From NCBI GenBank assembly GCA_965216565.1, contig OZ244170.1, forward strand, positions 3,840,001 to 3,904,000: 64,000 nt of DNA, read 5' to 3'. Below are positions 6,823-7,231 of the stretch, in pieces. The notes under the pieces are model-generated. The model had not been told where the DNA came from, made no database searches, and saw nothing but the letters and a program-made list of their open reading frames with translations. Source of the stretch: Bythopirellula sp. Lineage in GTDB: Bacteria > Planctomycetota > Planctomycetia > Pirellulales > Lacipirellulaceae. Position 1 is the stretch's first letter. Each line of letters begins with the position of its first letter. Made by a program: the position numbers and the translations under genes.

Positions 6823-6886
6823 AAAAAAGCTCCCAGAAAAGCACACGTCCCAGGGGGGCAAAGGACGTTGAAACCTTTCCGGGAGC
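6823..6886 (-). terminator. Intrinsic terminator
   Basis: Minus strand GCTCCCGGAAAGG...CTTTTCTGGGAGC stem with inner ACGTCC/GGACGT stem, followed by T6. Confidence 0.7.
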
Positions 6887-7196
6887 GATTGGACGCAATT
6901 ACGCTTGCGTGCGGGCGGACATACTAGCGTAGCTGGTATGCCAGGAGTGTGTATCGTAGCGGCGGGAGGCTTCCGTGCCTGCCGCAACCGCTCCGTGGGT
7001 TGATCGACTGATTGAATAAAGACAATCAACCCTTCCACGTGGTCCTGTTAGATCTTCCCCTATATGCGGTTAAAGTGACTTCCTTGCCAAGTTAGCTCGC
7101 TACACGCTCTGAGATAACTGAGGTTGTTCTTAGCTGAGTTTCGCTTCCGTGCTCGACACAAATTCGTTTCACCACAGCCTTCGTTTCGTTGCGTGG
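6823..7196 (-). ncRNA. Candidate CsrB/Rsm-like GGA-rich sRNA (~375 nt)
   Basis: Bounded by a sigma70-like promoter and an intrinsic terminator; hairpins GC-ACGGAA-GC, GGC-AAGGAA-GTC, GGC-ACGGAA-GCC plus further GGA motifs; no credible ORF. Confidence 0.5.
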
Positions 7197-7202
7197 GTCG
7201 GG

Positions 7203-7231
7203 AGAATATGGCAGGTAAGAATCTCGGTCAA
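7203..7231 (-). promoter_or_regulatory. Putative sigma70 promoter
   Basis: Minus strand TTGACC-N17-TATTCT (-35 at 7226-7231, -10 at 7203-7208). Confidence 0.55.

Follow-up and report, generated by a model that had tools for sequence, protein, structure and literature searches.

The interval 6823-7239 (minus strand) of the window, by which we mean the whole 64,000-nucleotide stretch of Bythopirellula DNA that was analysed, is a stand-alone non-coding RNA gene of ~375 nt with its own promoter and terminator, and it represents an undescribed RNA family that occurs as a single copy per genome in the class Planctomycetia. A 3' module, whose loop is rich in C, is the universal core of this family and its best-conserved part; CsrA binding does not explain it. 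An initial annotation had proposed a stand-alone CsrA-sequestering sRNA with the layout of CsrB or RsmY/Z. The stand-alone gene and a covarying ANGGAN hairpin uphold part of that proposal, but GGA motifs are barely enriched and the 3' module has no Csr/Rsm counterpart; we therefore consider the sponge reading partly supported, CsrA binding being predicted. The gene occupies the gap between two genes, on the minus strand, and direct reading of the sequence recovered every feature listed earlier at its place. Most of these features, taken singly, are no commoner than chance gives; the locus stands above chance because of the fold of the 3' hairpin, the fold of the core at 6955-7040 and the conservation of the RNA in relatives.

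The promoter (7203..7239, minus strand) comprises AACCGACC at 7239-7232, a -35 element TTGACC at 7231-7226, a 17-nt spacer and a -10 element TATTCT at 7208-7203. The TTGACC-N17-TATTCT arrangement at 7231-7203 was thus correctly described, and the alignment shows both hexamers invariant in 22/22 genus sequences. A promoter scan returned one site, matching at 9/12 positions, versus 0.8 expected in shuffles. At loci from other families, a TTGAC-N17-19-TAnnnT site precedes the RNA in 14 of 15 cases. Transcription probably starts near 7196. About 20 nt upstream of the -35 element we read in the sequence an A5G-T6 tract (7252..7263, minus strand), an UP-element-like A/T tract that may work as an UP element; a AAAAAGTTTTTT variant is visible at this position in the genus alignment (n = 22 sequences), in which only the tract and AACCGACC are conserved upstream of the -35 element. 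Relatives keep the promoter as well as the hairpin at 6968-6979 and the 3' module.

The 3' module (6823..6893, minus strand) consists of the single-stranded UCCAAUC (6893-6887), a hairpin (6886-6829) and U6 (6828-6823), the apical loop of the hairpin being UUUGCCCCCCUG (6862-6851) with C6 at 6858-6853. The GC stem and T6 terminator seen at first inspection are these same elements. A simple terminator rule, which does not allow for a loop of this length, gave no match at the locus. The hairpin folds with -34.8 kcal/mol (z -5.7; 0/200 shuffles as good), and an alignment of 132 distinct copies of the module shows compensatory changes in 9 of 15 pairs. The loop and the single-stranded stretch are near-invariant and the stems covary, some stem sequences such as GCUCCCGGAAA being near-invariant beyond mere complementarity. 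Sequence conservation over the module reaches ~80-84% across families.

A DNA search matched the locus in 37 of 40 relatives. We built a covariance model (R1) on the 3' module, whose family signature is the single-stranded CCAAUCGC, a hairpin with the GCCCCCCU loop and a U-run. R1 scores 87.3 bits at the locus (E = 3e-16, C1:3846823-3846898), the only copy of the RNA gene in the Bythopirellula genome. It matches 34/35 sampled genomes of the same order and 26/35 of family f18, which belongs to another order, always with one copy, and it finds the RNA in 0/35 genomes of family f103 and 1/30 of family f104. At least 120 public contigs carry the family, and almost all of them bear the label Pirellulales or Planctomycetia. 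Of the 22 genus loci, 20 have the DUF4332 gene upstream, but the 15 loci from other families have no neighbour gene in common with them. Neither the neighbouring genes (DUF4332/HHH, a WXXGXW low-complexity protein, DUF805 and Uma2) nor the thioredoxin-like gene and the small membrane gene found beside two short-form loci give a functional hint.

Comparison with known RNA classes matched no Rfam 15 family to the locus, and over 6400-7500 at E <= 10 only two microRNA families appeared, far below their thresholds. The covariance models for CsrB, CsrC and RsmX/Y/Z gave no match, whether at gathering score in the 64-kb window or at E <= 10 over 6400-7500. ARAGORN found no tmRNA or tRNA within the window, and RNase P RNA, tmRNA and SRP RNA were each placed at other loci. 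The 6S model RF00013 had no match in the Bythopirellula genome at E <= 1; it matched 12 of 31 genomes of the order, and in all eight of these that also carry the new RNA it lay on another contig. The 'Rhodopirellula-1' motif (Weinberg 2010) is an unrelated multi-copy hairpin. We found no paper describing this RNA, and the family is missing from Rfam 15.

Two readings would deny the locus the status of an independent RNA gene. In every one of the 92 homologues it is possible to draw ORFs (27-130 aa), as would suit a gene for a small protein such as the 74-aa GTG ORF at 6814-7038 (minus strand), but no frame is conserved among them. The locus itself holds ORFs of <=74 aa, but relatives read the conserved bases in different frames and on both strands, so that the earlier statement that it contains no credible ORF holds. 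Conserved nucleotides fall in at least two sense-strand frames plus the antisense, differing by genome; variation is located at compensating stem positions, and gaps in the genus alignment, inspected by eye, break the frame. We give a small protein gene next to no chance. In the second reading, the RNA would act in cis on the 706-aa gene that lies downstream (4389-6509, minus strand), as its leader or attenuator, and the 3' hairpin would be a regulated terminator. The two do lie on the same strand, RNA-library contigs read through the U-run, and beyond the terminator come a conserved UGCGC and a second hairpin. However, 314 nt separate the U-run from the start of the 706-aa ORF, and that gene is common to only 11 genus loci, a different gene taking its place in 9 others and none being common to other families. 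Since synteny is not kept outside the genus, we judge a cis-leader to be very improbable.

Upstream of the 3' module, the body of the RNA carries a series of short structured elements (all on the minus strand). The most 5' of them, GC-ACGGAA-GC (7143..7152), is a degenerate copy of a genus hairpin (hairpin 1) that reads GGC-AAGGAA-GCC in relatives. It is followed by the hexaloop hairpin UGGC-AAGGAA-GUCA (7076..7089; core GGC-AAGGAA-GUC at 7088-7077), which has 4 bp including one G-U and appears in both the MFE and the centroid structure. The part 6997..7042 opens with the CCACGUGG palindrome (7042-7035), which precedes a long hairpin predicted to pair GGGUUGAU (GGGTTGAT) at 7032-7025 with AUCAACCC (ATCAACCC) at 7004-6997. 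The next part, 6959..6995, holds CGGAGCGG (6995-6988) and the conserved hairpin with apex GGC-ACGGAA-GCC (6979-6968), the C-ANGGAN-G hairpin of the family, and a linker (6900..6958) with CGAUACAC and short variable hairpins, delineated from the fold and the genus alignment, leads to the 3' module. Both within the genus and in other families, a CGATACA-like sequence comes after the conserved hairpin, the remaining linker being variable. Further GGA motifs were read at 7046-7042 (CAGGA), 7038-7034 (GTGGA) and 6997-6992 (CACGGA).

The initial annotation counted three ANGGAA hexaloop hairpins presenting GGA in their loops. All three sequences are present, and the hairpins at 6968-6979 and 7077-7088 are predicted to form, but the one at 7143-7152 is not. 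The GGA is unpaired with a predicted probability of 1.00 at 6968-6979 and 0.77-0.88 at 7077-7088, but only 0.07-0.15 at 7143-7152, where the stem amounts to 2 bp, the GGA is predicted to pair elsewhere and the local fold prediction lacks the hairpin. Relatives in the genus alignment have GGC-A(A/G)GGAA-GCC at this segment; a regular-expression count found hairpin 1 in 21/22 genus sequences, the hairpin scored for the Bythopirellula window being the one at 7088-7077. The latter folds with -2.5 kcal/mol, no better than shuffles, and is specific to the Bythopirellula genome, the segment being absent from its nearest relatives in the alignment. The site has thus turned over, the stem of genus hairpin 1 having been lost here and a new AAGGAA hairpin having arisen 60 nt downstream. 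The core at 6955-7040 folds with z -3.5; CAYGTG is kept in 22/22 genus sequences, the stems of the long hairpin (7032-7025/7004-6997) vary among genus members yet stay complementary when the alignment is inspected by eye, and the hairpin at 6968-6979 is present in 22/22 genus sequences, with GGC/GCC to GAC/GUC swaps.

We examined the C-ANGGAN-G hairpin across the order in 129 sequences and found it conserved and covarying. In this set, whose loop letters A, G, G and A are fixed by the way the sequences were selected, 69.2% of cells are paired versus 54.7% in shuffles and 30-49% when slid, and the stem covariation score is 0.383 versus 0.187; 0/500 shuffles reach either value. C-G closes the loop in 107 of the 129 sequences, and loop positions 2 and 6 vary freely. 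In the 92 homologues, NNGGAN hexaloop hairpins number 1.45 per RNA versus 0.21 in shuffles, and 123 of 133 loops begin with A. A strict hexaloop hairpin is lacking in 16/92 RNAs, and 34/92 have only one. The many GGA sites of the supposed CsrB/RsmY/Z layout are not seen: the 304-nt body contains 7 GGA versus 4.7 in shuffles, and across the 92 homologues the mean is 6.0 per body versus 4.9, a bare enrichment. Among f18 members, 5 of the 15 homologues examined have no GGA in the RNA body at all, so CsrA binding cannot be the function of the whole family. Genome-wide, a pair of strict C-ANGGAN-G hairpins within 300 nt is found 5 times versus ~4 expected, and this clustering revealed no other sponge-like locus.

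CsrA is described as recognising GGA in hairpin loops and as being sequestered by sRNAs (PMC13443453, PMC4682653), and as widespread in Planctomycetota, where some genomes have up to 15 paralogues (PMC13443453). The Bythopirellula genome, which was expected to encode csrA, has 12 matches to PF02599 over the Pfam cut-off. One csrA has fliW directly upstream, so that only 1/12 paralogues is paired with FliW, and Hfq was not found in this genome. CsrA is present in 151/151 sampled genomes of the class, with 2-17 per genome. Its co-occurrence with the RNA is uninformative as evidence, since CsrA is also present in families with no match or a single match to the RNA (f103 and f104). As to the position of the motif on mRNAs, 46/379 hairpin-forming copies of CANGGANG fall between -45 and +5 relative to a crude ORF start versus 90/1944 non-hairpin copies (Fisher p = 2e-7), and one csrA paralogue has 3 such sites in its leader; the csrA leader lies at C1:2179827-2179921. 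This distribution suggests that the C-ANGGAN-G hairpin behaves as an operator in the Bythopirellula genome.

The consensus CsrA site is a hexaloop closed by C-G, and CsrB, CsrC and RsmX/Y/Z (Rfam CsrB, CsrC, RsmX, RsmY and PrrB_RsmZ), which sequester CsrA/RsmA in Gammaproteobacteria, have ~5 to 20 or more GGA sites. The new RNA resembles them in that its gene stands alone, with a promoter of its own and an intrinsic-terminator-like end, in its A-N-G-G-A-N hexaloop hairpins closed by C-G and in the presence of csrA in the genome. It differs in having only 1-3 hairpin sites with no overall GGA enrichment, in the invariant C-rich-loop 3' module, which those RNAs lack, in belonging to another phylum, in occurring once per genome beside 2-17 CsrA paralogues, and in that the body of some family members lacks GGA altogether. 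Among E. coli sRNAs, McaS and others bind CsrA via two GGA sites and also base-pair, McaS being Hfq-dependent. The small number of GGA sites and a possible dual use, protein binding plus a second module, recall McaS, but there is no homology, and the Hfq that McaS needs was not found in the Bythopirellula genome. To our knowledge, CsrA is antagonised by RNA only in Gammaproteobacteria, the role falling to the protein FliW in other bacteria. The RNA would serve the same end, relief of CsrA repression; FliW, however, is a protein, and one fliW leaves 11 csrA paralogues without a known antagonist.

We tentatively favour, at somewhat less than an even chance, a stand-alone trans-acting RNA of ~375 nt that acts as a low-valency CsrA decoy and carries a second, 3' module. 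The RNA would be made in quantity and would bind CsrA-family proteins via its A-N-G-G-A-N hexaloops closed by C-G, one such CsrA-type hairpin being apparently universal in the order (6968-6979 here) and one or two more being added per genome. The same hairpin appears to lie on ribosome-binding sites of mRNAs in the Bythopirellula genome, including a csrA leader, and the RNA would therefore compete for CsrA and relieve repression. Unlike a CsrB-like multi-site sponge, each RNA would hold one or two CsrA dimers. The invariant 3' module, with its single-stranded CCAAUCGC and its hairpin with a pyrimidine- and C-rich loop, would be a second functional module, with a possible role in stability or turnover, in binding another protein or in base-pairing with G-rich targets.

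The last of these options could also be the main function. The RNA may be a base-pairing sRNA whose CCAAUCGC, C-rich loop (UCCUYYGCCCCCCU) and C-rich 5' end are seeds for G-rich or Shine-Dalgarno-like stretches of mRNAs, the GGA hairpins being accessory, for example by recruiting CsrA as a chaperone in a genome where Hfq was not found. Only the 3' module is common to all members, including those with no GGA, and its combination of a near-invariant loop and single strand with covarying stems is the pattern expected of a seed or of a protein-contact surface; two f18 members even carry an additional long C-run in the body. RsaE/RoxS of Firmicutes and the actinobacterial 6C RNA pair through C-rich loops with such mRNA stretches. 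They resemble the new RNA in the six-C run of an apical loop, in the C-rich 5' end and in being widely conserved across a major clade, but there is no Rfam match, the new RNA has a single C-rich loop placed inside a terminator hairpin, and it adds GGA hexaloop hairpins and measures 300-400 nt versus ~100 nt. Moreover, in a test near ORF starts that carries little weight because the starts are crude, complements of the loop (GGGGGGC, AGGGGGG and others) were not enriched (fractions 0.016-0.051), nor were those of CCAAUCGC (0.040-0.064 versus a background of 0.064); it would be unusual for a seed to lie inside a terminator-hairpin loop, and no target was identified. We hold base-pairing as the main function to be possible but rather doubtful. 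In a further reading, the RNA could be part of a ribonucleoprotein or a decoy of a protein other than CsrA, with the 3' module as the protein site and the GGA hairpins structural or unrelated. Its single copy, its strong conserved promoter and the ~80-84% conservation of the 3' module resemble housekeeping RNAs more than known sponges, and stems such as GCUCCCGGAAA are near-invariant and not merely complementary. Yet the four usual housekeeping RNAs have other loci (RNase P RNA, tmRNA and SRP RNA, with 6S on another contig in 8 genomes), no conserved neighbouring protein gene points to a ribonucleoprotein partner, and the invariant A-GGA loop with its free N positions would be left unexplained. 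A role in a ribonucleoprotein, or as a decoy of another protein, seems to us unlikely.

Returning to the CsrA decoy, a bolder form of it would make the RNA the first RNA antagonist of CsrA outside Proteobacteria, a modular one in which the 3' module couples capture by 1-3 operator-mimic hairpins to a second activity, and a hub of post-transcriptional control; we regard this as conceivable, with considerable doubt. The second activity could then be base-pairing with G-rich targets or regulated turnover, in a phylum without Hfq, where CsrA has expanded to <=17 paralogues per genome and the module spans two orders. Planctomycetes carry unusually many csrA genes, with a FliW partner for only 1/12 paralogues here, and a single-copy, strongly conserved sRNA that may mimic the CsrA operator is a concrete and directly testable candidate. 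The family is widespread whatever its mechanism, and model R1 could extend annotation pipelines.

Traces of the family also appear in public RNA libraries. None of the RNA runs containing the stretch comes from the Bythopirellula organism; five soil or outdoor metatranscriptome runs contain 6-8% of its words. In 4 runs of 4 studies (soil metatranscriptomes), contigs cover only 6823-6920, at a depth of 2-10, and continue 40-105 nt past the U-run. They are relatives' 3' modules present in RNA libraries, carrying no information on boundaries, strand or level, and DNA carry-over is possible. Directly after the U-run, (A)UGCGC opens the second hairpin (6788..6822, minus strand; -16.4 kcal/mol, z -1.3); by eye, most loci of the order and several f18 loci have TGCGC after the T-run. 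The RNA-library contigs run through this second hairpin region, past the U-run.

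The candidate RNA is a conserved, single-copy RNA gene. It lies on the minus strand in an 852-nt intergenic gap (6510-7361) flanked by two minus-strand ORFs, of 153 aa (7362-7823) and 706 aa (4389-6509). A sequence check located on that strand all the elements named in the initial annotation: a -35 box TTGACC (7231-7226) and, after a 17-nt spacer, a -10 box TATTCT (7208-7203); the motifs GC-ACGGAA-GC (7152-7143), GGC-AAGGAA-GUC (7088-7077) and GGC-ACGGAA-GCC (6979-6968); GGGUUGAU (7032-7025), which pairs with AUCAACCC (7004-6997); additional GGA in CAGGA, GUGGA and CACGGA; and a long hairpin (6886-6829) followed by U6 (6828-6823). 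Several of these, each taken alone, are unremarkable. A promoter scan gave 1 site vs 0.8 in shuffles, and a simple terminator rule had no match at the candidate RNA because the loop of the 3' hairpin exceeds the length that the rule allows. For the 374-nt RNA as a whole, the fold energy is -128.7 kcal/mol (z -2.25). The predicted fold of the 3' hairpin is exceptional, with -34.8 kcal/mol and a z of -5.7, as good in 0/200 shuffles.

A DNA search with 6780-7260 gave matches in 37/40 related genomes, distributed as 22/24 of the genus and 15/16 from other families of the order (Pirellulales). The last 80 nt are the most strongly conserved, with ~75-84% identity, and a second conserved block comprises the promoter and first bases. 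The gene is present once in the own genome. The sequence pattern of the 3' end was found in at least 120 public contigs; almost every one of those listed carries the label Pirellulales, Pirellulaceae, Lacipirellulaceae, Thermoguttaceae or Planctomycetia, and we read the four other labels (Kuenenia 2, Zoogloea 1, Chitinophaga 1) as binning errors. We built a covariance model of the 3' module (R1) from an alignment of 132 distinct modules, whose consensus hairpin has 15 pairs, 9 of them with compensatory changes. R1 matched 34/35 sampled genomes of the order, in single copy each, 26/35 genomes of f18, a family of another order in the class, and the one genome of family f102. It matched none in families f103 (0/35), f105 (0/5) and f106 (0/2) of the class, and only weakly in f104 (1/30), f107 (1/2) and f108 (2/5, weak and partial). 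Of 150 genomes sampled evenly across the phylum, 5 matched, all in f18.

The promoter proposed in the initial annotation is conserved: TTGACC-N17-TATTCT is invariant in an alignment of the 22 genus sequences, where AAACCGNCC and an A5G-T6 tract precede it, and a similar site, TTGAC-N17-19-TAnnnT, lies upstream in 14/15 loci from other families. Its statement that there is no credible ORF also held: every homologue contains ORFs, but their frames over the conserved bases differ, and they lie on both strands. An upstream DUF4332 gene is syntenic in 20/22 genus loci, and no neighbour gene is common to the genus loci and the 15 loci of other families; we therefore reject a leader of an adjacent gene and agree with the earlier proposal of a stand-alone gene. 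The evidence for expression is thin. Contigs from 4 soil/outdoor metatranscriptome runs (4 studies) contain relatives' 3' modules, with 95-99% identity over 6823-6920 and depth 2-10, and extend beyond the U-run.

The check for a known family was negative, as Rfam 15 gave no match at gathering score within the window and microRNA noise only at E <= 10. RNase P RNA, tmRNA and SRP RNA were rejected because each sits elsewhere in the own genome. With the Rfam model, 6S was not detected in the own genome (E <= 1) and was detected in 12/31 sampled genomes of the order; it was rejected as well, because it lies on another contig than the candidate RNA in all 8 of those 12 genomes that also match the candidate. 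The 6S matches in the order (G025, G029, G036, G039 and other genomes) are full-length and weak (25-54 bits, 215-237 nt), and only 2 among the 12/31 genomes exceed the gathering score, so planctomycete 6S RNAs appear poorly covered by the Rfam model.

From predicted start to U-run the RNAs span 84 to 530 nt (median 325), as calculated from the 93/158 loci with a strict promoter pattern; long and short forms were told apart by eye. The long form, 300-400 nt in length and typical of most of the order, starts with a C-rich 5' end followed by (A)UCCACGUGGAUGGGUCUGCA, a hairpin and CUGCGGACC; ~20 nt later come a hairpin with apex C-[A N G G A N]-G and CGAUACA, then a variable stretch and the 3' module. 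Besides the A-N-G-G-A-N hairpin and the 3' module, the short form (~135 nt, -10 hexamer TACTGT) retains only a 5' stretch and one other hairpin. In f18 the body is variable (45-252 nt); 9/15 loci have a C-ANGGAN-G hairpin with 2 bp or more, one further locus is borderline, and 5/15 bodies are without any GGA. Comparison of these loci therefore identifies the 3' module as the universal core of the family. The module begins with single-stranded CCAAUCGC, continues with a hairpin in which the stems covary but the loop, UCCUYYGCCCCCCU, is almost invariant, and ends in the U-run. In f18 loci L190 and L191, the body is without GGA but holds a long C-run (7-13 C), besides the C6 loop of the module. 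The U-run is usually followed directly by (A)UGCGC, which is conserved in the order and in several f18 loci; in the window (6788-6822, minus) it opens a second hairpin, and the metatranscriptome contigs extend across it. This segment may serve as a back-up terminator, belong to a longer transcript or act as a signal at the DNA level. Long-form loci of other families (L037, L040, L044 and others) carry a 12-nt perfect palindrome, AUCCACGUGGAU, ahead of the core, with CCACGUGG (7042-7035) as the window counterpart; it could be a small hairpin or an RNA-RNA dimerisation site. At L074 and L078, the two short-form loci whose surroundings were inspected, the RNA is flanked by a thioredoxin-like gene (WCGDC motif), which is divergent, and by a same-strand gene for a small membrane protein.

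CsrA is described in PMC13443453 as typically recognising hairpin loops containing GGA. Across 92 RNA bodies GGA itself is hardly enriched (6.0 vs 4.9 in dinucleotide shuffles), but NNGGAN hexaloops with a closing stem of 3 bp or more are enriched 7x (1.45 vs 0.21 per RNA). At least one such hairpin occurs in 76/92 RNAs (0 in 16, 1 in 34, 2 in 27, 3 in 15), and 123/133 loops begin with A. For covariation we used 129 distinct 30-nt windows centred on A-N-G-G-A-N, picked by position and motif only, ignoring pairing; ~20 of them are not the homologous hairpin, which biases against the test. Paired cells made up 69.2% vs 54.7% in shuffles (reached by 0/500) and 30-49% when the partners were slid; covariation scored 0.383 vs 0.187, and the closing pair is C-G in 107/129. 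The hairpin is conserved in 22/22 genus sequences, with GGC/GCC alternating with GAC/GUC. Such a loop, in which A, G, G and A are fixed, positions 2 and 6 can vary and C-G closes the stem, is the high-affinity CsrA/RsmE site.

The three GGA hexaloop hairpins claimed in the initial annotation fared differently. That at 6968-6979, within a core (6955-7040) of fold z -3.5, stood, its GGA (6974-6972) being open with a partition-function probability of 1.00. The hairpin at 7077-7088 is predicted to fold no better than shuffles; its GGA is open (7083-7081, 0.77-0.88). No hairpin forms at 7143-7152 in the predicted fold, and the GGA there (7148-7146) is paired, being open only 0.07-0.15. Open GGA is limited to two sites, 7083-7081 and 6974-6972.

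The csrA genes that the initial annotation expected are present, with 12 matches in the own genome. Of the copies of CANGGANG that form hairpins, 46/379 (12.1%) fall between -45 and +5 relative to crude ORF starts, vs 90/1944 (4.6%) for non-hairpin copies and a background of 4.0% (Fisher p = 2e-7), an operator-like distribution. The most likely role of the RNA is that of a low-valency decoy: an abundant trans-acting RNA that would bind CsrA-family proteins through operator-mimic hairpins and compete with mRNA leaders for CsrA. The gene and its conservation, the A-N-G-G-A-N hairpin with its covariation, the presence of the CsrA family and the operator-like distribution of the motif are established here; binding to CsrA, its titration and high expression are what we infer.

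Multi-site sequestration by a CsrB-like sponge has evidence against it: the sites are few and sparse, the second and third hairpins are weak in the own genome, and some family members are without GGA in the body. Moreover, CsrA occurs throughout the class, also in those families in which the RNA was not found, chance alone would place two strict hairpins within 300 nt ~4x in the own genome, and CsrA does not explain the 3' module. The main rival to the decoy holds that this module does the work, either as a C-rich seed or as a protein site, with the GGA hairpins accessory. Target tests of such a seed showed no enrichment, but they were crude and too rough to weigh much. Hfq (PF17209) was not detected in the own genome (a 94%-complete single contig).

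The Csr/Rsm RNAs are its nearest known counterparts in function, but the candidate neither matches their models nor reaches their GGA density and is therefore not one of them. RsaE and 6C RNAs share a C-rich loop with it, without homology. The Rhodopirellula-1 motif of Weinberg 2010, the only planctomycete motif encountered, is a multi-copy hairpin unrelated to it. A literature search found no description of the candidate, which we rate as a new RNA family, a large part of which is unexplained; if the CsrA reading is true, it would be a protein-titrating sRNA, a known kind of regulator.

The single fliW of the own genome is directly upstream of one csrA (C1:302768-303384 in own-genome coordinates, outside the window); the 11 other paralogues are without a FliW partner. 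The 12 csrA leaders hold 5 CANGGANG motifs in 3 genes vs 0.57 expected, an excess partly inflated by Shine-Dalgarno likeness. Three of them, at -95, -53 and -19, precede the paralogue starting at C1:2179922, the last overlapping the ribosome-binding site, which looks like CsrA autoregulation; two of the three are in 4-bp hairpins (leader C1:2179827-2179921, outside the window). C-ANGGAN-G hairpins on ribosome-binding sites or start codons were seen at 46 sites, for instance C1:826806(-), 655037(-) and 839236(+), and form a candidate CsrA regulon.
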